A DNA stretch of 64,000 bases from Bacilli bacterium (GCA_900752975.1 CAADXH010000018.1:46904-110903); one strand, 5' to 3'; counted from the stretch's first letter, positions 12,419 to 62,348 are shown. The notes: generated by a model from the letters alone, not told the origin. Numbers and translations: made by a program.

Positions 12419-12460
12419 GTACATAATATTTAGATTATTACTTTAATATGTGCTTACAGC

Positions 12461-21201: not shown

Positions 21202-21273
21202 AATATACCTCCGATTATAGGACGAGTTCTTTATAACAGATTTCTGTATCCTATTATCACTATTATAATATAT
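21202..21273 (-). promoter_or_regulatory. conserved ~70-bp promoter and 5' leader cassette, copy 2 (reverse complement of 497..569)
   Basis: About 90% identical to copy 1 over ~70 nt, including the TATAATAGTGATA box and the RBS. Confidence 0.6.
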
Positions 21274-22492: not shown

Positions 22493-22554
22493 AAATGTTA
22501 TTTCCGACCCGTACGGAATTACGGAGAATTTTAAAATACAGGAGGTATTCTATC

Positions 22555-23790
22555 ATGAATACAACAGCAAACAGAAACACAGCAACCACACGGGAAATCA
22601 CTACTATCTTCGACAAAGCTATTAGCTTTGATAAGGTAGAGCCTTGCATTCTCTACTTAGCCGAAAGTGTAAACGGCAAGCAGGGAATTTTCTTGAAGCT
22701 GGAACATTCCAATGGAAACATTTTCGGAGCAATCAGAAAAGTTAATCCCAAAAGAAAAGTGAAGGCTGGAAGCAACAAGATTATCTTTAAGTATTATGGG
22801 CAAACTTATAGCTTGTTCTTAAATGAAGTAATGCTTATTGATGGCCGCACATCAAGACTGTTTAAAATGTACAATTTTCGTCTTCATTTCGAAGATGCTG
22901 ACAGGATTTATGACGGTTTGTGCAAGCATTTCAAAGCGTTAAATGCAGCCAATCAAGTAAAAGAACAGGAAGAGAAACCACAGACGAATCAGACTGTAGC
23001 ACCAATTGATAAGGAATTGTTTGACAATTTGATGGGTATGGCTATTAGTCAGACAGGTTTGACAGAAGCTGAAGTTACTGAGTATGTTGACTATGTTACT
23101 CGGTATATTCAGAATAAGAGAGAAGAGATGAACGATCTTAAAGAACAGATTCAGGAAATTTCCGAAGATATCTCTTCCAAATCTTCAGAGTTTGTTTTGG
23201 AAATTCAGAAGCGGAAAGAAATAGCTGAAAAGAGAAGAGCAGAAGAAGCTCGTAAAGCTGCTGAGGAAAAAGCAAAGAAGAAGCAGGAAGAAATTAACTC
23301 TGTAAGAGAATTTCTCTCTGGAGCTTCAGATGATATGATTCAGTATCTGAAAGCACAGCTTGGTGTTGAAGAAACTAAAAAATCTGATGAAGAATCTGAT
23401 TCACTGAAAGGTGATATCAATATGAAGGTTAGAGTTGTTCCTTCTAATAATGATGACTCTTGGAATTTCTTTGCAAAACACGTTAGAGAAATTTGTGATC
23501 GTTCATCGTTACCAAATAAAGAAATTCTTGAAAGACTCGTGAAGAAATCTGACGGCATGACCCTTAAAGAAATTGCCGATGCGATGGGGTTTAACTCCAG
23601 CGGAAGAATCGTAAGAATAAATGATCTTCTCAGAAAAATGAAATTTGACAAGATCTTAGGAACCAGAGTTCGTAAATCTGGTTATAAGATAGCCACTAAT
23701 AAAGAAAGTCGTGCCAATGGTGGCGTAACAAGAAAAATTAATTGTGAAATTTATAATGAATTGGCATCTGAATCTGAATATATCAAATAA
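22555..23790 (+). CDS. coiled-coil protein with a C-terminal winged-helix DNA-binding domain (start moved to MNTTAN)
   Basis: GGAGG lies 9 nt upstream of the ATG at 22555. There is a charged helical stretch EKRRAEEARKAAEEKAKKK, and a C-terminal region LKEIADAMGF...VRKSGYKIA that looks like a wHTH. Confidence 0.55.
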   Translation: MNTTANRNTATTREITTIFDKAISFDKVEPCILYLAESVNGKQGIFLKLEHSNGNIFGAIRKVNPKRKVKAGSNKIIFKYYGQTYSLFLNEVMLIDGRTSRLFKMYNFRLHFEDADRIYDGLCKHFKALNAANQVKEQEEKPQTNQTVAPIDKELFDNLMGMAISQTGLTEAEVTEYVDYVTRYIQNKREEMNDLKEQIQEISEDISSKSSEFVLEIQKRKEIAEKRRAEEARKAAEEKAKKKQEEINSVREFLSGASDDMIQYLKAQLGVEETKKSDEESDSLKGDINMKVRVVPSNNDDSWNFFAKHVREICDRSSLPNKEILERLVKKSDGMTLKEIADAMGFNSSGRIVRINDLLRKMKFDKILGTRVRKSGYKIATNKESRANGGVTRKINCEIYNELASESEYIK

Positions 23791-23863: not shown

Positions 23864-23907
23864 ATATTTAACCTCAGATTAACTTTTTTATAAAGGAGGT
23901 GTATTAT

Positions 23908-24723
23908 ATGGATAACTACTTACTATTTGAGTCAGGTATAGATTATAACAGAGTGTTTGCTCATCGAGGTGATATATTTATCTGCGAAGGATTATTCAAA
24001 CCTATGTCTGATATCGAGGAAAATGACCATATAATAGCAAAACCGAATAGACCGGTTTTAATTATTTCTGATGACATACATAATGCTGATATTGTGAAAG
24101 TGTTACCGTTCTCTACAAAAGCTGGTTCACTTGATCAAGAGTCTATTACTTCTGGGAGAGTAATTAAAGTCCCTGGCATTAAAAGTGACACAAACTCTAA
24201 TTACATCGATGTATCTCAGATATTTACGATTAATGTATATCAATTGAAATATAAGTTAGGACATGCTTCTCAAGAAATTGTAGATGCAGCAGTAGCATTA
24301 CATACACTACAAAACGTTGCTAATGCTACATCTATTAATACGATTGTCAAAATTTTTAAAGAGAAATTTCCGAATGCTCCTATTTTTAATCAGTTAAATA
24401 CAATCACTACAAATAGCTATGCAAATGGTCAAACAATATTTGTGAATAATATGTATGATCCTTCAGTCGATTTGTTCTCAGAGGTTAAACAAGTTACATA
24501 TGAAGAACTAATGGCTGAGAATGCAGCTAAGCCAGTATTAATGAATCCTGAAACAAAAGAACAAGCATACGAAATTTACCAAAAATGGCTATCTATGGGA
24601 ACAGATCTATTTAGAGCAAAATATGGTTTAACAAAACAACAATATATTACTTTGCGAGATAGGTGTGTTTGTAAGATGCTTGGAAAAATTGCAAACTTTA
24701 AGAAACATGATTGGAGTGCATAA
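23908..24723 (+). CDS. MazF/PemK-like endoribonuclease domain (N-terminal ~125 aa) fused to a ~150-aa C-terminal domain of unknown function
   Basis: HRGDIFICEGLFKPMSDIEENDHIIAKPNRPVLIISDDIHNADIVKVLPFSTKAG aligns with PemK/MazF/EndoA (RGD(I/V)(Y/W)..L.P..G.EQ...RPVL(V/I)(I/V)S.D......VV(V/L)P.TS). AGGAGG lies 8 nt upstream of the ATG at 23908. Confidence 0.65.
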   Translation: MDNYLLFESGIDYNRVFAHRGDIFICEGLFKPMSDIEENDHIIAKPNRPVLIISDDIHNADIVKVLPFSTKAGSLDQESITSGRVIKVPGIKSDTNSNYIDVSQIFTINVYQLKYKLGHASQEIVDAAVALHTLQNVANATSINTIVKIFKEKFPNAPIFNQLNTITTNSYANGQTIFVNNMYDPSVDLFSEVKQVTYEELMAENAAKPVLMNPETKEQAYEIYQKWLSMGTDLFRAKYGLTKQQYITLRDRCVCKMLGKIANFKKHDWSA

Positions 24724-24780: not shown

Positions 24781-24817
24781 TATAATATAATAGTGAATAG
24801 TAGTTGAATACTATTTT
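24781..24817 (+). promoter_or_regulatory. promoter-like element TATAATATAATAGTGAATAGTAGTTGAATACTATTTT
   Basis: It contains a TATAAT box, the TAGTGAATAG motif and the palindrome ATAGTA-N6-TACTAT, about 45 nt upstream of 24861. Confidence 0.45.
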
Positions 24818-34542: not shown

Positions 34543-34604
34543 TAAGACTTTACCCTCCTTAAATAACAGCTATCATCTTTTATTATAAAGTTTTGACAAA
34601 AAAA

Positions 34605-36342: not shown

Positions 36343-36720
36343 TTAAAGTTCACCACAAATATCAAACCTCTCATTGTCTTCTTTTGAAAACGCAATTATC
36401 CAATCGTTTGCTAAAATATCTTGATCTGTCATAAGATAATCAACAGTAACACCATATCTACGAATTACTTCAAAAGTATTTTTATTTTTTATAAATTTTA
36501 AAAACTTATCTCTATTCCAAGCTTTTCTAGTACAAATATATCCTTTCTTTAAAAATCTTAATATAACATCAAATTCAACTCCTATAGGTTCATAATCTTT
36601 TATAGTATAACGCTCTGTTGCTACGATAACTGGTGGAGAAGGAAAATCAGATTTATGATTTAATATCATATTAGCAAGTTCATCACTATAAGGTATATAT
36701 TTAAAGTTCATATTCAACAC
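36343..36720 (-). CDS. hypothetical protein (125 aa)
   Basis: RBS AGGTG. Confidence 0.45.
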   Translation of the reverse strand: MLNMNFKYIPYSDELANMILNHKSDFPSPPVIVATERYTIKDYEPIGVEFDVILRFLKKGYICTRKAWNRDKFLKFIKNKNTFEVIRRYGVTVDYLMTDQDILANDWIIAFSKEDNERFDICGEL

Positions 36721-36781: not shown

Positions 36782-37495
36782 TTAATAATATAATTCTTTA
36801 ATTACATATTTATCTTCTTGAAATACAAACATCTGATTTTTGAACCAGAATCTCCAGCCGCCGCCAGTTGTTGCTTGTACGCCTCTAAGACAATCTGAAA
36901 TATGTCTAGATTCTAATCCATGGTTAGCCGCAAACATAGTTTGATTATTTGTAAGGTAAATTTCACCAGTAGGCGACACTGCGTAAAATTCTTTAACCAT
37001 TCTCGAATTTCTAGTCTGTCTTGTTGGAGTGGTCCATCTAAGATTTCCTCTAACATATCCGACATTATTATTGATTCTATCCAAAGATACTCTTTCTCCA
37101 GCATAATGATTTTTAGCATATAAGTATTTTCCATACTCATCATCATAGAAATCTACAAATGCATCGTAATCTGTGGTCAATCCTCTGCCTCCATAATTAT
37201 AATAGTATTCACTATTAGGATTATAAATACGATTTTTCATATGTACCCATACATCATAAAATTTAGGATCTTGTTGTTTTAATCCAAATCCACAAGCAAC
37301 CTCATGTAGTGAACAATTTTGTCTATCCCTAAGATTGCCTTCGTAAATATCTTTTTCTCTTCCACATTTTAAGCATCTGCAGGTTAACATTCTTCTATTG
37401 TTAACAACATCTCTTTTTGAAGAGATAACCTCCATGTCATTAATAACATCTCCTGGTTTAATTTCTTTGAACTTTCTAGACATAATTAAAACCAC
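36782..37495 (-). CDS. HNH homing endonuclease with an N-terminal zinc-finger-like region
   Basis: HNH_3-type motif SLDRINNNVGYVRGNLRWTTP and a Cys cluster CRCLKCG...C..H..C. Confidence 0.7.
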   Translation of the reverse strand: MVLIMSRKFKEIKPGDVINDMEVISSKRDVVNNRRMLTCRCLKCGREKDIYEGNLRDRQNCSLHEVACGFGLKQQDPKFYDVWVHMKNRIYNPNSEYYYNYGGRGLTTDYDAFVDFYDDEYGKYLYAKNHYAGERVSLDRINNNVGYVRGNLRWTTPTRQTRNSRMVKEFYAVSPTGEIYLTNNQTMFAANHGLESRHISDCLRGVQATTGGGWRFWFKNQMFVFQEDKYVIKELYY

Positions 37496-37612: not shown

Positions 37613-38827
37613 TTAATCTCCGAATGCTTCCATAGCGTTCATTTGTGTAAACTTCTCTGTACTATCGTGGAAAGCCTTCATCATAATATTCTTTACAGAA
37701 CTAGCTAATTGAGGAGTAGCAGTACCAATATTAGGAGTATTTAGTAGGTAATACAAGTCGCCAGCACACTTGTTGCAGATGCATTCGTTTTTACATAAAC
37801 TACTAAAACGCATCTTTACAGTCTTCCCCTTGTATTTATCCATATTTGTACTGTCTAGACGCACTAGTCTACTTCCTTCTACTATATAAGAATACATTAG
37901 AAGTTTTAGATAGTTTTTATCTAAAGTTACTGTAATTGTATGTTTTGTACCACAGTCGCTACCCTTTGGTCCTAACTTAATATGCTGAAATGCCAATAAG
38001 AATTTCTTTTCCTCATAACCCCATATAGAAGTTTTTCTAGAACGGGAATATGGACCAGCTGCTAGAGAGTTTGCCATTGCAGCATAATCATCTTTTGATA
38101 CACCTTCAGAATAACAAGACTTAATAATGTTGTATCCCTTGGTAGGGTCAGGGTCTTTTTGTGCACCTTTTACGACATACATATTTTTAAAGTTGTTACC
38201 TAAGTCTGCACCTGCACCAGCTTTAATATTATCCCATGCAGGGTCATCTTTTAATTTATCTTCACAATAGGCTAATAGTTCATTCTCTATCTTCTGCATA
38301 GTAAATGCATCACCAGCAGCCAATTCCTTTTCATATTTCTTAAACAATTCTTTCTTCTTTGGTTCAATGACTTTGGAGATTAATAACATATCCTCTGAAG
38401 AAGTAGTGCAAATTACAGTAGAATAATTCATGAATTTTTGACAACAGAGAATCCAGTCTTTAAATTGCTGTGTTGTTACTCTATCTTCCAGAATGGCTAG
38501 AGATAGTTTATCATTAATATCACCGTATACACCTTTACTAATTGGTTTATTAATATAACCAATTTCATCAAAGAGTCCTGGATAATCGATGCAAGCTTTA
38601 TTAAAGAACCAAGAACCAACTGTAGTAACAAATTCATTCTTATTATTATGATAGGTCTTTGGTGGCACTTTTATAACATCATAAGTGTTAAACTTTTTCT
38701 TTCCATTAAATTCCCCGAAACATTCCATGAATACGCTTGTTTTCAAACAATCTTTGCTAGATAATGATAGAATATAATCTCTTTCACTATCTGTAATATA
38801 TCTAGATTTTCTCTTTTTAATAGCCAT
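37613..38827 (-). CDS. hypothetical protein (404 aa) with a C-terminal Cys-rich segment
   Basis: RBS AAGGAGG. Confidence 0.5.
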   Translation of the reverse strand: MAIKKRKSRYITDSERDYILSLSSKDCLKTSVFMECFGEFNGKKKFNTYDVIKVPPKTYHNNKNEFVTTVGSWFFNKACIDYPGLFDEIGYINKPISKGVYGDINDKLSLAILEDRVTTQQFKDWILCCQKFMNYSTVICTTSSEDMLLISKVIEPKKKELFKKYEKELAAGDAFTMQKIENELLAYCEDKLKDDPAWDNIKAGAGADLGNNFKNMYVVKGAQKDPDPTKGYNIIKSCYSEGVSKDDYAAMANSLAAGPYSRSRKTSIWGYEEKKFLLAFQHIKLGPKGSDCGTKHTITVTLDKNYLKLLMYSYIVEGSRLVRLDSTNMDKYKGKTVKMRFSSLCKNECICNKCAGDLYYLLNTPNIGTATPQLASSVKNIMMKAFHDSTEKFTQMNAMEAFGD

Positions 38828-39032
38828 ATTGATTCCTCCTTACTCGCTTTCTTTCAATAGAAGGCAATGCTTTATATTCTTTATGGGTAATACCATTTAG
38901 GTCAGTATAATGATAATACTCACCTTCATCAACAATACATTTGAATATTTTGCTTCTTTCTTGTTCTTCTAATTTCCTGCCTTCAAGAATCTTTGTTTTC
39001 TTTTGTTCAATTGTTGACATTGGCTTAAACAT
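38817..39032 (-). CDS. small hypothetical protein (71 aa)
   Basis: RBS AGGAG. Confidence 0.4.
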   Translation of the reverse strand: MFKPMSTIEQKKTKILEGRKLEEQERSKIFKCIVDEGEYYHYTDLNGITHKEYKALPSIERKRVRRNQYGY

Positions 39033-39086
39033 ATTGTATTCTCCTTTCCGAATTTATATGATTGTTGAAATGGGTTATAATTACAT

Positions 39087-39105
39087 ATTATAATATTGAA
39101 GAGGA
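39087..39105 (+). promoter_or_regulatory. promoter-like element TATTATAATATTGAAGAGG
   Basis: Motif-family member about 45 nt upstream of the ATG at 39147. It heads the operon that carries the RNAP gene. Confidence 0.45.
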
Positions 39106-39146
39106 AGGTCAACTACTCTTTAATACTATTTAAAGGAGGAGATTAT

Positions 39147-39599
39147 ATGTCAATTCTAATTAGAGATTTGAACAATAATCCACATGAACAACAACCACGT
39201 CGGTATGTGTCTATTAAAGACGTTAGTATACCAACAAAGAAGAACATTGTACCATCTAAGACACTTGTGATTAATGAATTAAGTGTTACGATTGTACAAG
39301 ATTTTGATGAAGATATCGATTTCAAAATCGATACGAAACCTGGAGTATTGTCTGATAATAAGACAATCCCGAAATTGGATATTACTGCGAAAGAAGAAAT
39401 CACATTTGATGATGATTTGACTTTAGCGAAACTGGAAAGTATCATTCGTCGTTGCGGTATTCTGGATGAGTATAAGGAATACTTTACGAATGACCCTGAC
39501 ATTGTAATTAATCAATATACTCTTAGTATTCAGAAGAAGTACAAGTATTTTAATGAATTCAGAGAGGGCATTATGATAGCTGGTGATATTGTAGTATAA
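39147..39599 (+). CDS. hypothetical protein (start moved to MSILIRDL)
   Basis: AAAGGAGG lies 6 nt upstream of the ATG at 39147. Confidence 0.5.
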   Translation: MSILIRDLNNNPHEQQPRRYVSIKDVSIPTKKNIVPSKTLVINELSVTIVQDFDEDIDFKIDTKPGVLSDNKTIPKLDITAKEEITFDDDLTLAKLESIIRRCGILDEYKEYFTNDPDIVINQYTLSIQKKYKYFNEFREGIMIAGDIVV

Positions 39600-39644
39600 A
39601 ACACTATCGTCAACTTTATAATAAAAAATTATAGGAGGTACAAT

Positions 39645-41234
39645 ATGTCAGACGTATATTCAACATCGGAAAATTATGATTACTTGTATGAGAAATTGGA
39701 AGAATTCTATAATGTTTCTGTTACAGGTAACTACCCATTCAATATTCCATTGAATGAAAATGGACAACCTTTATACAGATTTGAATCTAGAATCGTTCCG
39801 ATCGATTTTGATAAGGAATGTGAAGATGATATTGTAAAAGGTACAGGGTTTTATATCGTAAAGAAGCAAAACATTAAGAAAGATATTCGTTCTATTGACA
39901 GTATCTTTTCTTCAAGATTTGGAATGCAGATTGATGATGTAACACCATTTGGGGACGTTTATAAATGTAAGTGTGGTAAAACAATGATGAAGGTAAACAA
40001 TGGTTTATTTTGTCCGTTTTGTCATACGAAAGTAAGATATGTTGCAAATGACTTTTCTATTACAGGATGGATAAAGATGAATGATTTCACTGTAATTCAT
40101 CCAAATATGTTTAAAAAGTTAGTAGCATTTATCGGAAAGAAAATCTTCGATGATATTATTAATGTAGAACCGAAGATTGATGAGGATGGTTTTGCAATTC
40201 CAAAAACACCGTCCAAATCAAATCCATTTTCTGGTATTGGGTTTATGGAATTAAGAGATAGATTTGATGAAGTAATGGAGTTCTATCGAAACAAATATAA
40301 GTCCAATACAAATAAGATGGCTTATTATGAGGATATTATGCAGAATAAGAATATTGTGTTTACACATTGTTTACCTGTATATACATCTCAGTTAAGACCA
40401 TTCTCTATTAAACAGAATAAGTTTAACTTTGAAGGAAATAATGCTTTGTATAATTTGATTGCTGGATTAGTAGCAAAATTAAACAAGCATGATATCTATT
40501 CTAGAAACCGTTCAAAGCCAACAAATCAGATTCTGTATGATATTCAAATGAAGTATATGGAAATTTATGCAGATTTGGAAAAAGTAATTGCACAGAAGAA
40601 AGGTTATACCCGTTCTTTAAACGGTGGACGTTATAACTTTACCGCAAGAAATGTAATTATTCCAGACCCAGATTTGAGAATTGATGAAGTCATTCTTCCA
40701 TATCCAACTTTGATTGAATTAATGAGTTTGACAATCATTAATGTTCTTACAAAAACCTATAGTCCTGCAGAGGCTTATCGCATTTGGGATGAAGCCCGTA
40801 TTGAGTATAATCCGATGATTGCTGATTTGATTCAGAATATCATTGATAATCAGTATGTCGGAATTATCTTAAATCGAAATCCTAGTATTTCTCCATCGTC
40901 TATTATTCAACTTCATGTAACTGGTGTAACAAAGAATGACACATATAGTTGTCATTTACCACATGAAATTCTTAAGTCGATGGGTGCAGACTTTGATGGT
41001 GATACTTTAAATATCACACTTATCATTAATGATGAATTCTTATTGAACGCTGCAAAACTATTTAATCCTAGACTTAGTATGCAGGTATCTTATAATGATG
41101 GTATGTTTAATAGTAAGATGTCATTACAAACTGACACAATGATTTGTATTAATTCATTTGCACAACTTGGAATCAATTCTATCACAGAAGAAGAATTACG
41201 ACTTATTGAAGTTTGTCAATCATATCAAGAATAA
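39645..41234 (+). CDS. multisubunit RNA polymerase beta-prime-like subunit, N-terminal portion (zinc ribbon plus catalytic DFDGD loop)
   Basis: CKCGK...GLFCPFCHTKV matches the beta-prime Zn ribbon (CLCGK...GVICEKCGVEV). SMGADFDGDTLNI matches the universal NADFDGD active site. The spacing between the two (~330 aa) fits beta-prime. Confidence 0.75.
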   Translation: MSDVYSTSENYDYLYEKLEEFYNVSVTGNYPFNIPLNENGQPLYRFESRIVPIDFDKECEDDIVKGTGFYIVKKQNIKKDIRSIDSIFSSRFGMQIDDVTPFGDVYKCKCGKTMMKVNNGLFCPFCHTKVRYVANDFSITGWIKMNDFTVIHPNMFKKLVAFIGKKIFDDIINVEPKIDEDGFAIPKTPSKSNPFSGIGFMELRDRFDEVMEFYRNKYKSNTNKMAYYEDIMQNKNIVFTHCLPVYTSQLRPFSIKQNKFNFEGNNALYNLIAGLVAKLNKHDIYSRNRSKPTNQILYDIQMKYMEIYADLEKVIAQKKGYTRSLNGGRYNFTARNVIIPDPDLRIDEVILPYPTLIELMSLTIINVLTKTYSPAEAYRIWDEARIEYNPMIADLIQNIIDNQYVGIILNRNPSISPSSIIQLHVTGVTKNDTYSCHLPHEILKSMGADFDGDTLNITLIINDEFLLNAAKLFNPRLSMQVSYNDGMFNSKMSLQTDTMICINSFAQLGINSITEEELRLIEVCQSYQE

Positions 41235-41245
41235 AGGAGATAATC

Positions 41246-41527
41246 ATGGGACGTTATTCAATTGACCAAATAACAAAGGAATCATTCGAGGAAAGAGCAA
41301 AGGAATGCACTAGCATCAATGGGATTGTTTTACAATACGTTAAGAACAAGGGTGTGAAACAATCATCTGAAGAAATCAGAGGATTGGAAAGTCTGCTTTA
41401 TCTGAAGCTCTTATCATTATATAAACATGATAGAAAACATATCATTCAGTTAGAGAATAGTGTTGTAACAGCTGGAACAATCTTATCACAACTTAAGATT
41501 GCTGTAAACACTCGTTATGGAAACTAA
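41246..41527 (+). CDS. small hypothetical protein (93 aa)
   Basis: AAAGGAG lies 6 nt upstream of the ATG at 41246. Confidence 0.45.
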   Translation: MGRYSIDQITKESFEERAKECTSINGIVLQYVKNKGVKQSSEEIRGLESLLYLKLLSLYKHDRKHIIQLENSVVTAGTILSQLKIAVNTRYGN

Positions 41528-41552
41528 GATATAGAATCAGAAAACAAAAATG

Positions 41553-41590
41553 GGGTAGGTGACGTAATTGTCACCTACCTTTTATTTTTT
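41553..41590. terminator. bidirectional hairpin terminator
   Basis: ggtaggtgac/gtcacctacc stem followed by TTTTATTTTTT. Confidence 0.7.
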
Positions 41591-42662
41591 AATAGTATAG
41601 ATAGTAAATAATCTCGATACCTTTAGAATAATCAATCAATGCTTCATTTGGGAAGTTAAATCTTGTGAATGGTCTGATATCAGCATACTCAAGATTTCCT
41701 TCTGGATTAAGATATGGAATTGCAGTACATAAAGAAATTGTATTAATCTTAGAATCATTTGTACCAACGTTTCTGTTAAAGTATTCTCTACAGTCAGATG
41801 CAGATACACTCATCTTTAATTGTACAACAACCTCTGCTTCAGAATCACGTTTATCTTTCCACACATCTAATCCAGAACCCGTAATATTAATTAAATCTGC
41901 ACTATCATCAGCGTAGCGTCTAATTAACTTAGGTTCTTCATCAAATGTTTTAAAGAAATATCCGATAACACCATTTGCATCCATACGACCAAAGTACTGC
42001 TTTCTATAGGATGTACTCAAGTCAGCATCAGATGTTCTATATTTAAACGGAATCAAACAAGTTAGTCCACTTGTATCAGTTGTTGGATAAGTATTATTAC
42101 CACCTGTACCATCATTAAAATCCCAATATCCATACGGTGCAATCCACTTTGTATTATGTACTTTAAATACTCTAGAAGCTTCAATACCGCAACCATCAAT
42201 ACCAACACACCATAGACAAGCTCTACGAGCAAAATGTCTATATAACTTATGTGCAGGTTCACTACTAATAGATAAGTTATTGAATATACTTAAAGTACTA
42301 TTTGTACCGGCTTCACCAGTATAGAAATTAAATCCAGCTGTTGCAAAACCATCGAGTGTTGTTGGAATTTCTACAGCACTACTAGATTTAAAAGGTCTAT
42401 TTGCATTCTTAAATGCCATATCATAACTTGGAATAGAATTTAAGAAATCATATTCATCATCTAATACAAACTTATCATAATCAAAATCTTTGATTGCATT
42501 AAATTCAGAACCAGATACAATTACTTTATTGGAACCACGGAATATTACCTTACCATTAGCCAAGGACTTTAAAATAATATCAGTTCCTTTAACATTAGCT
42601 TTATCACCTTTAATAATATTTGTACCACCGTTATTATCAAAGATAGTAAGTTTTTTATTCAT
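41589..42662 (-). CDS. putative tail fibre or structural protein (357 aa)
   Basis: G/T/N-rich beta-type composition. Follows the 1590-aa gene in the same operon. Confidence 0.5.
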   Translation of the reverse strand: MNKKLTIFDNNGGTNIIKGDKANVKGTDIILKSLANGKVIFRGSNKVIVSGSEFNAIKDFDYDKFVLDDEYDFLNSIPSYDMAFKNANRPFKSSSAVEIPTTLDGFATAGFNFYTGEAGTNSTLSIFNNLSISSEPAHKLYRHFARRACLWCVGIDGCGIEASRVFKVHNTKWIAPYGYWDFNDGTGGNNTYPTTDTSGLTCLIPFKYRTSDADLSTSYRKQYFGRMDANGVIGYFFKTFDEEPKLIRRYADDSADLINITGSGLDVWKDKRDSEAEVVVQLKMSVSASDCREYFNRNVGTNDSKINTISLCTAIPYLNPEGNLEYADIRPFTRFNFPNEALIDYSKGIEIIYYLYY

Positions 42663-42680: not shown

Positions 42681-45600
42681 TTATGGTAATAACACATTAC
42701 CATTCGCATCCTTTTGTACATCACCTTTATATTCCACATAATGCATTTCAACTTTTTCTGATGGACTTACTTTATCCGTTAATGTAAGTTTAGAAGTTAA
42801 ACTTGGAAAGTCGAAGTTATGACCATACATCTTTTCTCCAAAACCAAATTTGATTTCATATGGTTCAAAATATGTAGATTTTAAATTGTATTTCTCTCCT
42901 ATTTTAATAGGATCTTTGTATTCAGTATGATTATGAAAATACTTATAGTCTTTTGGACGAACCTTTTCTAATAGGTTATCAAACTTTGTAGTATAATACA
43001 TATCATCAAGAATATGTACATGATTGTTAAATGGGTCATCAATAATATAACTAATATTAGTATCAAGAATCTGTGTTTTCCATGATTTAAAGAAAATAAC
43101 CATTTTCATGATATATCTCTGGACATTCTCAATATTAGCGGTAGGAATCAAATTGAATATATATTTCCATTCATTTTTATCAAAGTACTTTTCTAGAGCA
43201 GAAGCAATTAATTCACACAAGACTTCTATTCTTCTTCGTTTTTCGTCTGAAGGCACATAGTAAGTTGTCTTAGTTGTAGGGTCGGTAACTGCTGTATTTG
43301 TATAATTATATTTTAAATCAATCAGATGACTATACAGACTTGGATTTCTATATTGTAAGAAGTCATAATAACTATCAGCAATCTTACGGGTAATTGTAAT
43401 AACTTTATCATCTGGAGAAGTTTGAGCTCCTTTATTAACTCTGATAACTTTTCCGTCTTTGATAATGTATTTCCACTTATAATTTGAATCAGTTATCTTA
43501 TGTCCTTCATCATCAACTATATTGTTTTCATCATCAACAGTTACTTCTATCTTTATAGTAGGGTCTTGTTTACTTACTAAGTAATGTTTTAGTATTTCTT
43601 CCATTCTAAAGAAATAACCGTCTAAGTTTGGTACCATGTAATATTTTCTAGGAAATTGATTTAGATAGTTATCATGAATTACATAGTCTTTCTTACCAGT
43701 TTGTTTATATACTTCATCATAGTATAAACAATCAACTGACAATCCATTTGTATTCGTATAACGGCATTCACTGAAATCATCGTTATGAGAATAAGTAAAT
43801 AAACCCTCATCAATATCTCTATCTGGTTCTAATTTAAACCCTCTAAAATACGGATATCCATCTTTATCATATAATACATCTATAGCAGAAGTAAGATAGA
43901 ATAAATCATCTGGATTTTCAGAATCACTATATACAGGACTACCAGATTCATCAATCAATCCATAATAATCATGATTCATCTTTGTTTCCATAAACGAATC
44001 AAATAAGACTTTATAAATATCATACATACGTTTCGATTCAGCATGTCGCATCATATAAGTAAGATGATCATATAAGTTTGTATTACTATAATAGATTTTC
44101 TTTAGCATATTTATTTTTTCCAAATCAGACATACTACTATCTAATCTAGTTAAAATATCTGTATCTAACCATAAACCATGAGAATTATTATCATCATTTG
44201 TATATTGAGTTGGTTTCCAAGAAATATCGATTGTTCGAATTTCTCCATATTCATTCACAATTGGGTGCTTCTCTAGATTATAACACCAAATATCAGAATG
44301 TCCAAAGTCTAAGTTTAATTTAGCAGTTGTGGAACAATTCTCTGGGCAAGTATTATATCTACCACTTAAAAACGCACCGATACTCGGATTTGGAATATGA
44401 TGATCTTCATCTGAGTAATATGGTTTTGCATTTGGAATATCATTAATCTTACTAGAAGGAAGTATCGGAGAATCTACAGTTCCAGTAGGCATTCCGTAAT
44501 ACACCTTTATATCATTATCAGCATCATAAACAAACCAGTCATCAAATCTTTCTGATAACCATCCTTTATCCATTGGTGACATTCCGTAACCTGTATTTGA
44601 GATTGTTTCACCAAATTCATTAATATAAGAATAGTCATGAATTTCATTCTCATAGTTATTATTGATAAAGTGTTTGTTTTGTAGATAGTTATAAATATCA
44701 TTCCAATCGGTATCGAAATTGAACCCATTAATATACATATTCTTTTCCATATCAGATGCAATGTTATCTGGTTCAACACCATTGTATATAAAATTCAATG
44801 CAATTGCAAATGTAAGTAAATCATTTAATCTTACTTTTGCACTGGATAATTCAGGGTCAACTTCTACATATAAATCTTCTTCATCAATATGCTTATCATA
44901 TAGCATATTCATAAAGTAACTTAATTGATATGACATCTTAACCAAATCAATCGAAGCTTCAACAGCAATATATTTTGTTCGTTCAATTGTAAATTCTTTA
45001 TTAAGAATTTGCTGTTTCTTAGACTGATGAAGTTTATCACGTTCTTCATCTGTTAAAATATCAAATGTAGATACACCATCCCAAAATGGGTCGGCTAGAG
45101 TAATACTATCATAGCTTCTTCTCATATCTTTTCGTTCAAGAACTTTAGATGCATTCGGGTCAAGAAGTGGAACTTTTAGAAAACATAGATTATAGTTCTT
45201 TCTAAAGTATTCTTTACCAATCATGTCTTCTGTAATAACTTCATACACATATGGCGTTTTATATACAGGAACTAAATCGTTATCAATTGTAGATACAATA
45301 TCACCTAATTGTAATTCATCTAGTGACATTCCAGTTATTTCAATAACATTTCCGATATCCATCCATCCTACATATCTAGGTGTAGGATTATTAAGAGCGT
45401 CATAAGCAAGGCTATCAAACACAGCTTCTACATATACTCTAACAGAAACACAATAGTTTTCTCTAAAGATTCTAGTATATCGTTCATATAAATCACCCAA
45501 TGTACTAGGAGTAGCACCAAATGTAGAATTTGTATTAAATATGTAATTAGATTGATCACCAAAATAATCACTAATTGTTTTCGGAGTATCTTCATCATCA

Positions 45601-47453
45601 TCTGCTAACATATTGATTCCAGCTTTATATGGTAACCAAACCATAAATGGAATTGTATGATTTAACATATATTTATTTTCAGTTTCTATTTCTGCATCAT
45701 AATCTAATCCATGAAGTGCACAATATGCTTCATCAATTTCTGTATCAGCATTATAGAAATATGTAGAAGAATTCAATTCTTCATCTGTAATATTATCAAA
45801 ATCAATTGACTTATCATATTTGAATAAACCTAGGATAGAATAGATTCTATATTTAATTCGTCTATAATGAAACGCATTAAGACCGAATGTAGGATCATTT
45901 GATGTCTCTTCATCGAATACAAGTTTGATTACATTTGAAATAGCTTCTTTAATATTACTCAAGAGAGTGCTACGTTCTTCTAAATATCTTGTACTATTTA
46001 CTGTATCTTTATTATATCGACTTGTACCAAACCAAGGAAGATCATTTTTATAAGCAATATTATCTAGGAAGTCACAAATAAAACTATTAGAAGTTGTTGC
46101 ACCATGTAGAACATTAATAGAATCAGCAATCTTTCCTGCAATTGGTTGATAATCAGATGGCAAAATTACTCGATTGATAGATGTATCAGCATGCTTCTCA
46201 TCCTTTAAAGAATAACCATACACATATGTTCTAATAAAGTTATCTTTGATAATTTCACCATTCTCATCCTTTTCAACTGTAGTATCATCTATCATATATG
46301 GTACATTCATCAATGGGATTTTATTATTTGTAATGTCTTTCATTCTTCCTAAATAATATTCTCTATTTGTATGATACTTTGGATTGATATCATCTTTTGT
46401 GTAATAGAAGAAATCTTCTCGATTGATTCGTTTTGTTTTCATTAGATAATATGTATATACTACAATATCATCATTATCAAACAATTCTAGAATATCAGTA
46501 ATGTTTCGATTAGAAGATTTATATTTAAGAAGTTTATTTACATTCTTGATGATTCTTATTTGATACTTTACTGGAATCTCTTTATAGTAAGCAATCCCAT
46601 AAGATTCAAATAGATAACGAATTGTTCTAGAATCAAATACATCTTTATTGATGATGTATTCTTGTACTTCAGAAATCATATCTACCATTGTTTGTATGAT
46701 AATTAGAATCTGAATAAATGCGTCATAATGATAAGACATGAATCGATAAGCTTCTGAGTATACAGTAGCCATTGTATATCTTCTATTTCTGTCATACATT
46801 CTTTTGAATTTATTTTCAATGATATCAAATGTATTTAGTTTTGGGACATATAGAAGAGAAAAATTAACAGCTTTTCTTGCTGTATAGTAATCAATTCGCT
46901 TATCACCTAAATGGTAAATATATTGATAATGTGTATCTTCAGCATAATCTGCTTTGATTTGGTCAAGTGTACCATCTGCAATGATAACTGCTAATTGTTC
47001 TTCATCTAATTCATGTAAGTATTTTCCTTGCAAGTCATCTTTATACTGTCCCATGTCAATGAAGTATCTTTTATATAATTCTGGAATTATAAATGCTGGA
47101 CCAATATCTTCATATATATCTTCAGGTTCATATCCTGTTGCTTGAAGATAAGCTTTTTCATCATTTAATGTATATGCAGGTGGTAAACCATTCAGCATTC
47201 TATAATAACTATTCCATTCCATATAGTTATATTCTGCATATGGACCATCTTTTATTTGATTCCAGTTCCCTTCTTTGAACTTAATGAATTTACCAGCAGC
47301 CATAGAAGAACGAAGGTCTTCATAATGTAAAGCTTGATTCTCATTTTTTGTAATTGCATTCATACCAAGTATCTTAACACAATTTACAATAAGATCAATG
47401 TAAGGATTATCTGTATACTTCATTTTAAAAGTATAATCATATCTATTACCCAA
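42681..47453 (-). CDS. giant structural protein (1590 aa), probably tail or baseplate
   Basis: Its size and its context in the same block as the fibre and lysis genes. No motif recognised. Confidence 0.6.
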   Translation of the reverse strand: MGNRYDYTFKMKYTDNPYIDLIVNCVKILGMNAITKNENQALHYEDLRSSMAAGKFIKFKEGNWNQIKDGPYAEYNYMEWNSYYRMLNGLPPAYTLNDEKAYLQATGYEPEDIYEDIGPAFIIPELYKRYFIDMGQYKDDLQGKYLHELDEEQLAVIIADGTLDQIKADYAEDTHYQYIYHLGDKRIDYYTARKAVNFSLLYVPKLNTFDIIENKFKRMYDRNRRYTMATVYSEAYRFMSYHYDAFIQILIIIQTMVDMISEVQEYIINKDVFDSRTIRYLFESYGIAYYKEIPVKYQIRIIKNVNKLLKYKSSNRNITDILELFDNDDIVVYTYYLMKTKRINREDFFYYTKDDINPKYHTNREYYLGRMKDITNNKIPLMNVPYMIDDTTVEKDENGEIIKDNFIRTYVYGYSLKDEKHADTSINRVILPSDYQPIAGKIADSINVLHGATTSNSFICDFLDNIAYKNDLPWFGTSRYNKDTVNSTRYLEERSTLLSNIKEAISNVIKLVFDEETSNDPTFGLNAFHYRRIKYRIYSILGLFKYDKSIDFDNITDEELNSSTYFYNADTEIDEAYCALHGLDYDAEIETENKYMLNHTIPFMVWLPYKAGINMLADDDEDTPKTISDYFGDQSNYIFNTNSTFGATPSTLGDLYERYTRIFRENYCVSVRVYVEAVFDSLAYDALNNPTPRYVGWMDIGNVIEITGMSLDELQLGDIVSTIDNDLVPVYKTPYVYEVITEDMIGKEYFRKNYNLCFLKVPLLDPNASKVLERKDMRRSYDSITLADPFWDGVSTFDILTDEERDKLHQSKKQQILNKEFTIERTKYIAVEASIDLVKMSYQLSYFMNMLYDKHIDEEDLYVEVDPELSSAKVRLNDLLTFAIALNFIYNGVEPDNIASDMEKNMYINGFNFDTDWNDIYNYLQNKHFINNNYENEIHDYSYINEFGETISNTGYGMSPMDKGWLSERFDDWFVYDADNDIKVYYGMPTGTVDSPILPSSKINDIPNAKPYYSDEDHHIPNPSIGAFLSGRYNTCPENCSTTAKLNLDFGHSDIWCYNLEKHPIVNEYGEIRTIDISWKPTQYTNDDNNSHGLWLDTDILTRLDSSMSDLEKINMLKKIYYSNTNLYDHLTYMMRHAESKRMYDIYKVLFDSFMETKMNHDYYGLIDESGSPVYSDSENPDDLFYLTSAIDVLYDKDGYPYFRGFKLEPDRDIDEGLFTYSHNDDFSECRYTNTNGLSVDCLYYDEVYKQTGKKDYVIHDNYLNQFPRKYYMVPNLDGYFFRMEEILKHYLVSKQDPTIKIEVTVDDENNIVDDEGHKITDSNYKWKYIIKDGKVIRVNKGAQTSPDDKVITITRKIADSYYDFLQYRNPSLYSHLIDLKYNYTNTAVTDPTTKTTYYVPSDEKRRRIEVLCELIASALEKYFDKNEWKYIFNLIPTANIENVQRYIMKMVIFFKSWKTQILDTNISYIIDDPFNNHVHILDDMYYTTKFDNLLEKVRPKDYKYFHNHTEYKDPIKIGEKYNLKSTYFEPYEIKFGFGEKMYGHNFDFPSLTSKLTLTDKVSPSEKVEMHYVEYKGDVQKDANGNVLLP

Positions 47454-47485: not shown

Positions 47486-47947
47486 TTACAAAGAGGTCTT
47501 ATTATGTTCAATGACAAAGTTTGTTACTTTGAAATAGACTCTCTTACCAATTATATCATAAATTGCATCTTCATTATAATATAAAGAAAGTTGTTGTAAC
47601 ATTACTGGAGAAATTCTATCACTTACTAAAGTGCAAATATCTTTACTGATTTGAATTTCTTCCTCTTCTTTAATATACCAATCTGCTTTATAGATAAGAT
47701 TCATTAAAGAATATTCCTGGAAACAACTTTCAATAATTGCATCCAATCTTGTTTCAATATCTTTTGTGACATTCAAATGAATATCAATATTATACTTCTT
47801 TAATTCAAGTTCTTTATATTTGTACTTCAGCCATTTATTAATCGTTGAAGTAATTACTGCATTACTCACAATCCCCAGTATTAGAATTAGAAGTATTCCA
47901 AAAATAATAAGGGTTCTTGGATTCAATAGGGTGGATAGTACTTCCAT
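47486..47947 (-). CDS. single-pass membrane protein, a candidate holin or lysis accessory (start at the ATG 47947)
   Basis: N-terminal TM helix LIIFGILLILILGIVSNAVI. GGAGTG lies 9 nt upstream. Confidence 0.45.
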   Translation of the reverse strand: MEVLSTLLNPRTLIIFGILLILILGIVSNAVITSTINKWLKYKYKELELKKYNIDIHLNVTKDIETRLDAIIESCFQEYSLMNLIYKADWYIKEEEEIQISKDICTLVSDRISPVMLQQLSLYYNEDAIYDIIGKRVYFKVTNFVIEHNKTSL

Positions 47948-48605
47948 AGTTTCTTTCACTCCAATTCTGTATTTCGTTTCCTAAAGTTAATAATTCATCA
48001 TCATTAGATTCTTTCTCTCTTTGAGCAAGTCTAATATAATATAATAGTTTTGAACATATTTCTGGTGTAATACCATTATAATATGTCTTAATTAATTCTG
48101 TCCATTTACCAAATACTTGATTTGGATGTACATAGAATAAATCATCATTATGATACAGCTGATGAACCGTTTTACTCATCATAATAATCGGCACTCGATT
48201 CTGTTTATGTTCTTCTCTTAAAGCACCTACAATATGGAAAGTAGAAACATACCCATATGTATTCAAATAGTGTTCACTAATCATTAAAGCAATATCAAAT
48301 ATTGTAAGAATGACATGATTCATTTCAAGTTCAGCCATTTCGGAATTTATATTATGTAGATAAGCACAATGGTCTAATCCTAGTGACATTAGGTTTGCTT
48401 TATAAGCTTTATAGAATCTACTATGTCTAAATTGAGAAATTGCATTATTGATAAATCTGGCATAACTATCAATATCTGCTAAGGTTTCTTTTGTCTGCAT
48501 AAGACTAATCTCATAAACAGAACTTGGGCTTCTAAGCGTAGGATTTCCGTTATTTAAGTAACTAAATATATTAGGAAAGTCTTTCCCATTTAATTCAATA
48601 TCCAT
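47862..48605 (-). CDS. hypothetical protein (247 aa); its 3' end overlaps the next gene by ~86 nt out of frame
   Basis: RBS AGGAGGG. Confidence 0.5.
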   Translation of the reverse strand: MDIELNGKDFPNIFSYLNNGNPTLRSPSSVYEISLMQTKETLADIDSYARFINNAISQFRHSRFYKAYKANLMSLGLDHCAYLHNINSEMAELEMNHVILTIFDIALMISEHYLNTYGYVSTFHIVGALREEHKQNRVPIIMMSKTVHQLYHNDDLFYVHPNQVFGKWTELIKTYYNGITPEICSKLLYYIRLAQREKESNDDELLTLGNEIQNWSERNYGSTIHPIESKNPYYFWNTSNSNTGDCE

Positions 48606-54484: not shown

Positions 54485-54526
54485 AAATCCTCCTTTTCTT
54501 GATTTTATAATAAAGTTCTTCTATTA

Positions 54527-54570: not shown

Positions 54571-55338
54571 TTATTTTTTATATTGAATATCCATCAGTAT
54601 TGAGAATAGTTCTCTGTTAAACATCTGATTGTTCTCAATAGATACAACGCCTTTATAAGCTTCATCTAAGAAGCTCATTCCAAAGTTTCCAATTCGAAAC
54701 ATTGATTCAGCATTAAACTCTCTATAATAATCTAATTCCAATTCACGATTATCATACTTCTGAATAAAACTCATTAATTCTTGAATTGCCATGTCGACGT
54801 TATTCTTAATGACAAGTTTTAATATATAAGCTATGAAAGAAACATAAGCTTCATGATACTGCAACTTCCCATCACTAATACCCTTAATATCCATAACACC
54901 TTCATCGAATTCATTTAATCCATAGTATATTTCTATACCACGACAATATATATAAATATCATATTGATTTCTAAGGGTGAAATCAATATGACCGAATGTT
55001 GTTTTATCAAGCCTTCTCAAAGTATAAAAGGCATCTTTCTTGATTGATACAATATCATCTTCTGTCAAATGATTTGCATCGATCAATTTTTTTCTGGCAA
55101 TTTTAAATCCTTCTTTTAAAGCCTCTCCAATAAGAGGAGTTTTCTGCATATATCCAAGGGTTACTTCTCTTTGATATTTAGTCATTTGACTAAACATATC
55201 ATATTCTCTTTGTTTAATGATACCAGATTGAAGTAATATGGATATGTTTGCTTTAGCAATATCATATTCATATATTTCATTTATGATAAATCTAACCTTC
55301 TTTGTATATAAAGTTCTTTTGTATAACTGCGTATCCAT
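54571..55338 (-). CDS. hypothetical protein (255 aa)
   Basis: RBS AAGGA. Confidence 0.5.
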   Translation of the reverse strand: MDTQLYKRTLYTKKVRFIINEIYEYDIAKANISILLQSGIIKQREYDMFSQMTKYQREVTLGYMQKTPLIGEALKEGFKIARKKLIDANHLTEDDIVSIKKDAFYTLRRLDKTTFGHIDFTLRNQYDIYIYCRGIEIYYGLNEFDEGVMDIKGISDGKLQYHEAYVSFIAYILKLVIKNNVDMAIQELMSFIQKYDNRELELDYYREFNAESMFRIGNFGMSFLDEAYKGVVSIENNQMFNRELFSILMDIQYKK

Positions 55339-58471: not shown

Positions 58472-60178
58472 TTAGAAAAAGTTTGAAAGTTGATCATCTG
58501 ACATTTTCTCAGATACATCATGTGCACCAGACCCAGGACCCACATCAAATTCCTCTTGTGATAATATCTCTCCTGTATCATCATCGACAGAAACATATCC
58601 TATCGTTCGTTTAAGAGGAACTATATTGCCGTTGTCGTCTACATTTACTCCCATTTCTCTTAACTCTTCCGGCGATAAATCTTCTTTTGTTTTTGATAAG
58701 TCTTTGGGAATAAATAGATTCTCGGTAGCAAGTTGAGGGGTTACTTGCTTTGTATACATGAACTGATTCTCAGGTTTCTTATAATCGTCCAAGGTTAATT
58801 GGTCGATTGGTGTTTTACCAAATGTAGGATGATAATGTGCATCATTTGCCATTTGACAACCAAGATTACCAGAGTATACCTTATCCAAGAATAACTTTCG
58901 CTTTATCTCATATTCTTCTTGAAGCTTTTGATGAACAAGTGGGTCAGTGCTCATTTCTTCAGGAGTTGAGGTTAAAGCTCTATAATGAAGATCTCGTTCA
59001 AAGTCATAGGACAGACTAAAGAAGTTTGAACGATGATCGTAAGTTAGATCAGTGTTGCAGCATGCAGAAAGAATCTTATTAAACGAATCCTTTGAGAATG
59101 CTGCTGTTCTCAAAGCTCTTTCGATGAGTTGTTCTTGTTTCTTCCAATCAATTCTTTCATCTTCACGTCTTGCGTACTGTTCTGCTAAAGAAAGCCCCTC
59201 TGCTTTCCAAGCATTCCAACGATTGATATTATCGAAATATGCTTTCTTCATTAATGCATCTGTGATTTGCATTCTCTTTTCGAAGAGAGCAACTTCGTTT
59301 CGGAATTGTTCCATTTCATACTGTCTTTGTCTATCTTCCATTCTAGTGTGAATTGTATAAGACTGTCCTCTGTTGTCTTTTGTCTTATAATTCTTTTCTC
59401 TGATGACATTTCCAGTTTCACAATCGATAATTTTGAATGAAATTGCTCTTTGATAACGGATACCATTAATGTCATAAACATTATAAATGATGTCACTTCC
59501 GTCTCCTTCCATTTCTTTTAGAGCTTCCATTCTTTCTCTTTCAGCTTCAATTCTTGCTTCTTCTTGTTCTTTGTGAATTTGTTCAGCAGATTTGAATTTG
59601 AAGCTTTCAGCCCAATCCATCATTTCCTTTGAAGGGTTATGTTGAGCAATAAATAATGCCCATCCATATTGCTGATTACATTGATACTCTCTATCTTCTT
59701 CTAAAGACTGATAGTAATTCTCCATTGCTTCAGCGTTATAAAAGTTATATGGATTGATTCCGTATAATCTCATCCCTGGTGTATATCTTTTGATTCTTTC
59801 GTCTTGTTGTTGATTTCCAACATAGCCTCCATAGTTATTATTTCCAAAAGAGATACAATTAGATGGATTTCCAAGTTGGAAAAGATTCACCTTTCCTTGT
59901 TGTGCAGCCTGAGCTGTAGTGGAAAGAATTCCTTCCCATGGTGGTGCAATAGAAATTTCTTGTTGATTGTTTGGTTGATTATCATAGTCAACTACAATTC
60001 TAGGATTATCTTGGTCTGCACCTACCGATAACATTTCTTCAATTTCTGGATTCTGTTCTACAAAGTTATTAATCTCTTCGTCAGACATAGTATCCAGATG
60101 AGACTGAATCTGAGCATCTTGAACTCTTACAGCTTGAGATGCTTGCAGTAATTTAGCTCGTCTTTCTTCTGATAACAT
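58472..60178 (-). CDS. hypothetical protein (568 aa)
   Basis: RBS GGAAGGAG. Confidence 0.5.
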   Translation of the reverse strand: MLSEERRAKLLQASQAVRVQDAQIQSHLDTMSDEEINNFVEQNPEIEEMLSVGADQDNPRIVVDYDNQPNNQQEISIAPPWEGILSTTAQAAQQGKVNLFQLGNPSNCISFGNNNYGGYVGNQQQDERIKRYTPGMRLYGINPYNFYNAEAMENYYQSLEEDREYQCNQQYGWALFIAQHNPSKEMMDWAESFKFKSAEQIHKEQEEARIEAERERMEALKEMEGDGSDIIYNVYDINGIRYQRAISFKIIDCETGNVIREKNYKTKDNRGQSYTIHTRMEDRQRQYEMEQFRNEVALFEKRMQITDALMKKAYFDNINRWNAWKAEGLSLAEQYARREDERIDWKKQEQLIERALRTAAFSKDSFNKILSACCNTDLTYDHRSNFFSLSYDFERDLHYRALTSTPEEMSTDPLVHQKLQEEYEIKRKLFLDKVYSGNLGCQMANDAHYHPTFGKTPIDQLTLDDYKKPENQFMYTKQVTPQLATENLFIPKDLSKTKEDLSPEELREMGVNVDDNGNIVPLKRTIGYVSVDDDTGEILSQEEFDVGPGSGAHDVSEKMSDDQLSNFF

Positions 60179-62306: not shown

Positions 62307-62348
62307 TTTAAAGTCCTCCTTAAAAAATAATCTTTATTATAAAGTTAA

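Follow-up and report, generated by a model that had tools for sequence, protein, structure and literature searches.

One question raised by the DNA presented above, a stretch of 64,000 nucleotides from an assembly labeled Bacilli bacterium (GCA_900752975.1, CAADXH010000018.1:46904-110903; the whole stretch is hereafter referred to as the window), is whether a 529-aa protein encoded in it, with a zinc ribbon and a GADFDGD loop, is one half of the beta' subunit of a multisubunit RNA polymerase (RNAP) of a phage and, if so, to which polymerase it belongs, the one packaged in the virion (vRNAP) or the non-virion one (nvRNAP). The evidence supports, at a probability that we put at about 0.9, the N-terminal half of beta' (beta'N) of the nvRNAP of an uncultured jumbo phage of approximately 215 kb, akin to phages AR9, PBS1, and phiR1-37. 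The gene is a divergent addition to a well-characterized family, represented by the AR9 and phiKZ structures and by a PHROG of its own, and not a new kind of polymerase.

Identity of the 529-aa protein

The open reading frame (ORF) itself, located in a window of about 30% G+C and preceded by an AGGAGG Shine-Dalgarno sequence 7 nt from its ATG, exists as given in the initial annotation, and so do the two motifs that had been read in its product. The cysteines at positions 108, 110, 123, and 126, all inside 'YKCKCGKTMMKVNNGLFCPFCHTKV', belong to a stretch that aligns column for column onto C70/C72/C85/C88 of Escherichia coli beta', and GADFDGD aligns onto NADFDGD 458-464 of E. coli and onto DYDGD, the catalytic loop of AR9 (PMC9209446). 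When the protein is aligned with 42 metagenomic homologues of identities down to 36%, no variation is seen in the four cysteines, A448, or D449, and F450, D451, G452, and D453 are conserved at 90% or more. The clamp N-terminus, the zinc ribbon, the lid region, and the catalytic loop of the double-psi beta-barrel (DPBB-A) are thus all present, and the three aspartates of the loop would hold the catalytic Mg2+.

As to the relationships of the protein, Pfam, PHROG, phmmer searches of the PDB, and tblastn all agree, with signals well above chance, with the proposal of a beta' N-terminal half of the phiKZ/AR9 type. The Pfam domain RNA_pol_Rpb1_2 (PF00623) is matched with a score of 43.1 bits (gathering cut-off, 25.3), and PHROG 2987 ('RNA polymerase beta subunit') is matched over residues 102-504 with E=8.7e-55. 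A tblastn search of 50,697 phage records returned only jumbo phages, in their RpoC-N genes, with every match below 60% identity: phiR1-37 (g274, 'RpoC N-terminus'), AR9, PBS1, Staphylococcus phages (labeled 'non-viral RNA polymerase beta-prime subunit'), and phiKZ-like Pseudomonas phages. In AR9, the match is gp270, annotated as the beta' N-terminal subunit of the nvRNAP. This protein is also the best chain in the PDB (7S00_d, E=1.2e-36, residues 136-501), followed by phiKZ gp55 (7OGP_A, E=1e-20, residues 94-476), and cellular beta' and cyanobacterial gamma rank behind them, with E-values of 1e-7 or higher. An AlphaFold2 model computed from the 42-sequence alignment (mean predicted local distance difference test score, pLDDT, of 76) gave the same picture when compared with the PDB by Foldseek, a check that the initial annotation had proposed: the AR9 gp270 and phiKZ gp55 chains are on top (7S01_d, E=1e-29; 7S00_d; 8QUE_A, E=4e-23), ahead of bacterial beta' chains and cyanobacterial gamma. 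When AR9 alone was searched by tblastn, gp270 was recovered with E=2e-31, and the beta'N of the virion enzyme, g145, produced only noise at E<=10. As gp270 and gp55 are the best matches and g145 is not significantly matched, we conclude that the 529-aa protein is orthologous to the non-virion beta'N subunits. No close cultured relative is apparent, the 5-kb region having no megablast match among GenBank phages.

The protein stops near residue 540 of E. coli beta' in the alignment, and no Pfam match to Rpb1 domains 3-5 is found in it; on these two grounds a cellular full-length beta' (RpoC) was rejected. The early stop had been noticed before and placed about 90 aa past the active site, the actual distance from D453 to the end being 76 residues. 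The C-terminal end coincides, in the alignment, with those of the phiR1-37, PhiPA3, and Staphylococcus-phage proteins and of the gp270 and gp55 families, the split just after DPBB-A being common to AR9 gp270, phiKZ gp55, cyanobacterial gamma, and the 529-aa protein, at a site described previously (PMC7598289). The segment corresponding to the E. coli rudder is a gap in the 529-aa protein and in all of its phage homologues, as judged by alignment, and absence of the rudder has been reported for AR9 and phiKZ (PMC9209446). Contigs of up to 215 kb carry the exact 529-aa protein, and one IMG/VR contig that is 99% identical measures 214,829 bp (IMGVR_UViG_3300045988_128423). The homologues form more than 170 clusters, the best 120 of which are mostly 490-560 aa in length, and IMG/VR contains 491 or more related loci, the contigs of which reach 267 kb and in many cases measure 205-267 kb.

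The divergent neighbor

The initial annotation had considered the rest of beta' unrecognizable in the window. This does not hold, as the leftward gene at 37613..38827 is derived from beta' and includes the bridge-helix region, albeit as a part of the virion enzyme. Its 404-aa product matches PHROG 2962 (E=2e-62) and is 34% identical to AR9 gp264 over 98% of its length (E=4e-57), a protein annotated in AR9 as a vRNAP subunit, the gene of which is late (PMC5312081). The 404-aa protein fits the 'middle beta-prime' of the virion enzyme, which has been described as made up of five pieces, with beta' itself in three (PMC7598289). In the PDB, the 404-aa protein only weakly matches AR9 gp154. By hhalign, its family profile aligns with columns 49-407 of the family of the non-virion C-terminal half (beta'C) at a probability of 98.4% (E=4e-15), over the bridge-helix 'SGYLTRK' and a Cys-rich region. 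It is assigned to the second enzyme, that of the virion, and does not partner the 529-aa protein. Of 80 related loci, 49 encode a homologue of the 404-aa protein at a distance of up to 6 kb from beta'N, and in AR9 g264 is about 5 kb from g270; the linkage of the two genes is old.

Between this gene and its leftward promoter motif, a 71-aa ORF is variably present: it is found in L003-L008 and L015 among the related loci, and not in the 99%-identical contigs L016 and L017, in which the start of the 404-aa gene adjoins the promoter region. On its other side, the virion-RNAP gene is adjoined by a free-standing HNH homing endonuclease gene (36782..37495, minus strand; PHROG 2081, E=3e-28), present in the near-identical contigs L004-L006 and L008 and missing from L003 and L007. 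In AR9, too, g264 is adjoined by a homing endonuclease gene, g265, and several of the AR9 RNAP genes contain introns with endonucleases, but no interruption is seen in the RNAP genes read for the phage of the window.

Promoter-like motifs

Most promoters of the window had been noted to lack a -35 element, and this observation now has an interpretation, as the motifs found in their place match the consensus sequences of the early and late phage RNAPs of AR9. The first class, TATATTAT-N6-G, occurs in 8 of 33 upstream regions, versus 0.9+/-1.0 in shuffled sequences, and places the predicted start 44-66 nt ahead of the start codon. Its sequence is that of the core of the early consensus of AR9, AAATATATATTAT-N6-G, recognized by the virion RNAP (PMC5312081). 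The second class, AAC[A/T]-N6-TA, is found in 20 of the 33 regions, versus 5.4+/-1.8 in shuffles, mostly 17-39 nt before the start codon (range 7-76), and resembles the AR9 late consensus, AACA-N6-TA/G, of the non-virion RNAP (PMC5312081). Further sites of the first class include 499..513, 9343..9357, 16967..16981, 21258..21272, and 24781..24795, further sites of the second include 34580..34592, 54505..54517, and 62334..62346, and some genes (20674..21201 and 6920..9295, for example) have both.

Both classes are represented at the beta'N operon (Table 1). The early-type motif has one mismatch to the window consensus TATATTATAATANTG and is kept upstream of the 150-aa ORF in relatives. The late-type motif before the same ORF is kept in the related loci L018, L021, L023, L025, and L026 as AACT-N6-TA, with N6 varying. 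A second late-type motif lies in the 45-nt gap before beta'N. Of 11 distinct relatives, 10 have AAC-N-N6-TA at this position, at a distance of 22-27 nt from the start codon, with N6 spacers such as TTATAA, TACTGA, TATGAA, TAACAT, and ATTCTA. As AAC and TA are fixed and N6 changes, an AAC-N7-TA signal is favored over a host -10 hexamer. The leftward motif that precedes the 71-aa ORF and the virion-RNAP gene takes the form AACA-ATAGTA-TA in L021 and L023 and AACA-ATTAAG-TA in L028.

The operon ends in a strong intrinsic terminator (41552..41581 and a T-run), flanked on either strand by T-rich sequence; its thirteen-pair stem, with 6 G-C pairs, is followed on the plus strand by TTATTTTTTA. The terminator scan also calls a site on the minus strand, where the tail, CCATTTTTGT, is a weaker T-run.

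Partner subunits

No RNAP subunits beyond those encoded at 39645..41234 and 37613..38827 were found in the window when 52 other ORFs of 120 aa or more, excluding overlapping shadow ORFs, were scanned against PHROG, when AR9 gp089, gp105, gp125, gp154, and gp226 were used as tblastn queries, or when all window reading frames of 80 aa or longer were compared by tblastn with the AR9 regions in which every RNAP gene is contained. Homologues of alpha or omega were likewise not detected in the window. The initial annotation had taken the missing pieces to be elsewhere or highly divergent, and two of the partners of the 529-aa protein are indeed elsewhere: on the 99%-identical contig, both halves of the non-virion beta, gp089-like and gp105-like, are encoded some 6-14 kb beyond the left edge of the window. 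The gp089-like protein matches Pfam Rpb2_6 at 40.9 bits (cut-off 23.4). The gene order g078-g086-g089-g095-g105 in this region is that of AR9. A gp078-like virion RNAP piece and a g189-like vRNAP beta of 1,723 aa are also encoded there; the latter is a single uninterrupted ORF, whereas AR9 g189 is joined from six pieces. Genes for UvsX, an NAD-dependent ligase, and SbcC are also present to the left of the window on the same contig.

Alternative explanations

Both enzymes possess a beta'N piece with an equal split site (PMC7598289), and a virion-RNAP gene adjoins the gene for the 529-aa protein, so one might argue that the latter is the beta'N of the virion-packaged RNAP, the one that transcribes the early genes. 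We deem this very improbable, as the best matches of the protein are to the non-virion gp270 and gp55, as PHROG 2987 scores 187 bits versus 35 bits for the second RNAP family, PHROG 2986, and as an early-type motif precedes the operon like the nvRNAP genes of AR9, the vRNAP genes of that phage being late (PMC5312081). Still less credence, indeed close to none, is due to the notion that the ORF is a truncated or interrupted rpoC (a pseudogene, an assembly artifact, or a gene broken by an intron or an intein), with the remaining part of beta' directly downstream, for which AR9 gp270 itself, with its HNH-endonuclease intron at the DYDG codons, provides a precedent. An ORF of about 500-540 aa recurs in the more than 170 protein clusters, from many independent contigs; the 93-aa ORF found downstream has no similarity to beta' and is followed by the terminator and a convergent gene; the split site is the one shared by AR9, phiKZ, and cyanobacterial gamma; and beta'C is encoded tens of kilobases away in relatives (30-130 kb from beta'N in six related contigs). 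The split is genuine, and not an artifact.

A separate matter, compatible with a genuine non-virion beta'N, is the meaning of the two small ORFs on its sides. The initial annotation had proposed a three-gene operon with possible accessory RNAP subunits, and the ORFs and the layout do exist: the three genes are co-oriented and tightly packed, each with a Shine-Dalgarno sequence, and they share one terminator. Most relatives have one small ORF on either side of beta'N, and the 150-aa ORF diverges about as fast as beta'N does (49% identity where beta'N is 47-48% identical), as might be expected of an RNAP module with extra subunits or assembly factors. Neither of the two proteins has a Pfam or PHROG match, and the single-sequence AlphaFold2 model of the 150-aa protein, with a pLDDT of 47, is unusable. 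The subunit role, however, is without support, and we regard such a module as improbable. The small-ORF families of other clades are unrelated to those of the window (hhalign probability 0.1-3.2%), and AR9 g266-g269 show no similarity to the small ORFs. The 150-aa ORF is found beside beta'N only in relatives with a beta'N identity of at least about 47%, and its relatives number only 14 among 1.84 billion representative proteins. The 93-aa ORF drops to 35% identity where beta'N is 87% identical, being replaced already within the close clade and absent or replaced in more distant relatives. A late-type promoter motif separates the 150-aa ORF from beta'N. Finally, the AR9 holoenzyme, as described, consists of five subunits, with no small accessory one among them (PMC9209446).

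Some of the observations weigh against the assignment to a complete nvRNAP with promoters of its own. The identity to the characterized enzymes is only 23-29%. The partner beta'C was not located for the phage of the window by protein, alignment, or neighbor-gene searches. Single-protein scans with AR9 gp154 and gp089 reached only AR9 itself; no listed cluster in a search with gp154 was from the contigs of this phage, and none was among the best 120 of 1,372 clusters obtained with a beta'C query from the gut clade. An alignment scan matched related contigs and not that of the phage of the window, and the neighbors that beta'C has in relatives had no counterpart in the regions read. The beta halves were found on the 99%-identical contig, and beta'C in related contigs only. 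A fifth subunit like gp226 or gp68 was not located in the window or in the flanks read. Such a subunit, structurally sigma-like, is required by the known non-virion RNAPs (gp226 in AR9, gp68 in phiKZ; PMC9209446), and the term sigma-independent, applied earlier to polymerases of this kind, is imprecise for this reason. Two sets of candidates for this subunit were rejected: a 488-aa gene that follows GroEL in the right flank encodes a Zn-finger endonuclease (PHROG 15137), and the window ORFs 58472..60178, 22495..23790, and 12461..13450 have no PDB match to gp226 or gp68.

Also on this side of the argument are two points concerning the promoters. A sigma-70-like TTGAAA-18-TATAAT at 39065..39094 overlaps the early-type motif. 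It is the sole full -35/-10 match among the 33 upstream regions, its spacing is not kept in relatives, and its '-35', TTGAAA, results from reading the leftward AACA motif on the opposite strand. A host sigma-70 promoter for the operon was considered and, given the motif overlap, the uniqueness, and the unconserved spacing, judged probably coincidental. Several copies of the late-type motif contain TATAAT-like sequence, and all of the promoter calls are motif-based, so host sigma-A/sigma-70 may make use of the late-type motifs.

Proposed mechanism and its implications

We propose that the 529-aa protein would assemble with a separate beta'C and with the two halves of beta (the AR9 gp105 and gp089 homologues), probably joined by a sigma-like fifth subunit, and that the non-virion enzyme so assembled would transcribe late genes from AAC[A/T]-N6-TA promoters. 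The virion-delivered RNAP would first activate the beta'N operon, from the TATATTAT-N6-G early promoter, and the late-type promoters of the operon would sustain its expression; the virion-RNAP gene would be expressed late, by the non-virion enzyme. This scheme is modeled on AR9, in which early and late promoters together keep the nvRNAP genes 'continuously expressed', the vRNAP genes being late (PMC5312081). The presence of both motif types before the operon, and of the late type before the virion-RNAP gene, is consistent with such a cascade, implying an AR9-like succession of two polymerases. By analogy, we infer that the pairing of polymerases and motifs, the timing of expression, and resistance to rifampicin would be as in AR9.

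The window is thus best viewed as part of a jumbo phage with a two-polymerase transcription system of its own, which would explain why most of its promoters are unlike host sigma-70 promoters, and its genes can be sorted into temporal classes by the kind of motif, early or late, that precedes them. With this phage, the AR9/phiR1-37 branch of phage multisubunit RNAPs gains a divergent lineage that appears to be abundant in metagenomes. This lineage keeps the ancestral zinc ribbon and AR9-like promoter motifs at about 29% protein identity, and it should be useful in comparing minimal RNAP assembly and promoter recognition.

A bolder proposal, which we consider rather unlikely, is that the clade runs the complete AR9-type program, including recognition of the AAC[A/T]-N6-TA late promoters on the template strand, possibly in a deoxyuridine-dependent manner, and/or that the 150-aa protein is a new nvRNAP-associated factor. 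Deoxyuridine-dependent recognition of the AR9 type goes with a gp226 orthologue bearing a conserved valine in the 2.1bis helix and with deoxyuridine in the genome; of the AR9 features, the window displays the AACA-like late motif. The clade is large, with the at least 491 IMG/VR loci mentioned above and 1,372 protein clusters for relatives of beta'C. Were its program indeed of the AR9 type with deoxyuridine, phages with deoxyuridine-containing DNA would be common in anaerobic human-associated communities. The dataset numbers of some member contigs resemble, on our unconfirmed reading, Human Microbiome Project identifiers.

Comparison with known systems

The best match in both sequence and fold is AR9 gp270 (PDB 7S00, 7S01, 7UM0, 7UM1), which shares with the 529-aa protein the split after DPBB-A, the lack of the rudder, and the DxDGD loop. 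The gene neighborhood is similar as well, in that the gp264 orthologue lies a few kilobases from beta'N and genes like gp260/gp261 are close by, and in both phages an early-type promoter is found upstream of beta'N. The differences are, however, substantial. The identity is about 28-29%, and the 529-aa protein has approximately 45 more residues at the N-terminus. The zinc ribbon, kept here, in phiR1-37 g274, and in PhiPA3 gp054, has been lost in AR9 gp270 and in the Staphylococcus phage PALS_2. The catalytic loop is GADFDGD versus SGDYDGD in AR9, the gene lacks the intron/HNH insertion of gp270, and the fourth position of the late-type motif is mostly T in the window and A in AR9.

Among cultured phages, the best tblastn match is phiR1-37 g274 (29% identity, 76% of the query, E=1e-34). 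In addition to the zinc ribbon, this protein possesses a similar loop, GADYDGD, and a small ORF lies directly downstream of its gene; it differs in a shorter N-terminus and in the host of the phage, a gamma-proteobacterium (Yersinia). Another example is presented by phiKZ gp55 (PDB 7OGP, 8QUE) and PhiPA3 gp054, with the zinc-ribbon cysteines, the catalytic loop (NADFDGD in PhiPA3), and the split architecture in common, but with identities of only about 23-25%. The late promoters of phiKZ (TATG) also differ from the AACA-type motif of the window (PMC5312081), and phiKZ belongs to the nucleus-forming Chimalliviridae. More distant are cyanobacterial and plastid RpoC1 (gamma) and bacterial RpoC, which share the fold and the order of zinc ribbon, lid, and NADFDGD, gamma being also split at the same place (PMC7598289). 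They are matched at E=1e-7 or worse, the 529-aa protein is devoid of the rudder and of lineage-specific insertions, and its gene is found in a phage-genome context, with no alpha or omega homologues detected in the window.

Table 1. Features of the beta'N locus and RNAP genes to its left. Locations are those of the window, except that L101, L197, and L200 are stretches of IMGVR_UViG_3300045988_128423, left of the window.
Feature	Location	Strand	Remarks
Virion-RNAP 'middle beta-prime' gene (bridge-helix region), 404 aa	37613..38827	-	AR9 gp264 orthologue
Variable 71-aa ORF between leftward promoter and virion-RNAP gene	38817..39032	-	Overlaps start of virion-RNAP gene by 11 nt
Leftward late-type motif AACA-ATCATA-TA	39055..39066	-	23 nt before 71-aa ORF that precedes virion-RNAP gene
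Early-type motif CATATTAT-AATATT-G	39084..39098	+	Upstream of three-gene unit
Late-type motif AACT-ACTCTT-TA	39111..39122	+	25 nt before start codon of 150-aa ORF
150-aa ORF, clade-specific, no family match	39147..39599	+	Shine-Dalgarno AAGGAGG
Late-type motif AACT-TTATAA-TA	39612..39623	+	45-nt gap before beta'N; exact match to window consensus
beta'N gene, non-virion multisubunit RNAP	39645..41234	+	529 aa; AR9 gp270/phiKZ gp55 orthologue
Four-cysteine zinc ribbon codons	39966..40022	+	C108-x-C110 ... C123-x-x-C126
Catalytic Mg-binding loop GADFDGD, double-psi beta-barrel (DPBB-A)	40983..41003	+	Residues 447-453
93-aa ORF, fast-evolving or replaceable, no family match	41246..41527	+	Own Shine-Dalgarno
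Hairpin intrinsic terminator	41552..41591	.	Between convergent 93-aa and 357-aa ORFs; closes three-gene unit
AR9 gp089-like nvRNAP betaC	L101 3155..5461	-	31% identity over 658 aa, E=1e-69
AR9 gp078-like virion RNAP piece	L101 8515..9237	-	E=3e-18
AR9 gp105-like nvRNAP betaN	L197 13993..15738	+	E=2e-38
AR9 g189-like vRNAP beta, 1,723 aa	L200 13419..18587	+	Single uninterrupted ORF

Other genes of the window

Additional genes are shared with AR9: 42681..47453 encodes a g260-like virion protein, and 54571..55338 a g239-like protein, while the paralogues at 5387..6157 (plus strand) and 47862..48605 (minus strand), both of PHROG 12252, are akin to the AR9 paralogues g242 and g261. A two-subunit type II topoisomerase is encoded at 6920..9295 and 10040..12424 (both minus strand; gyrase A-like and gyrase B-like), with phage-type promoter motifs upstream of each of these genes or gene blocks.

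As to the host, a gene at 62387..62902 (minus strand) encodes an anaerobic ribonucleotide reductase activase, an NrdG-like radical SAM protein (PHROG 626, E=8e-43), which suggests an anaerobic one. Homologues of beta'N can also be found in assemblies of bacteria: one of 39% identity on a contig binned in an uncultured Solobacterium metagenome-assembled genome (L203, CALISH010000016.1) and one of 27% identity in a Waltera intestinalis assembly (L204, CAVBGZ010000001.1). Assignment of a host from such GTDB-genome homologues was rejected as too weak to use, a binning artifact being possible.

A few genes of the window point in other directions. The 125-aa protein encoded at 36343..36720 (minus strand) matches the Tad2-like family of Pfam (PF11195, Thoeris anti-defense 2) at 32 bits, against a cut-off of 25, and is a candidate anti-defense protein. 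The product of 23899..24723 (plus strand) has an N-terminal region like the MazF growth inhibitor (PHROG 1936, E=4e-10), and a single tRNA gene, for tRNA-Gln (anticodon TTG), is present at 6252..6327 on the minus strand.

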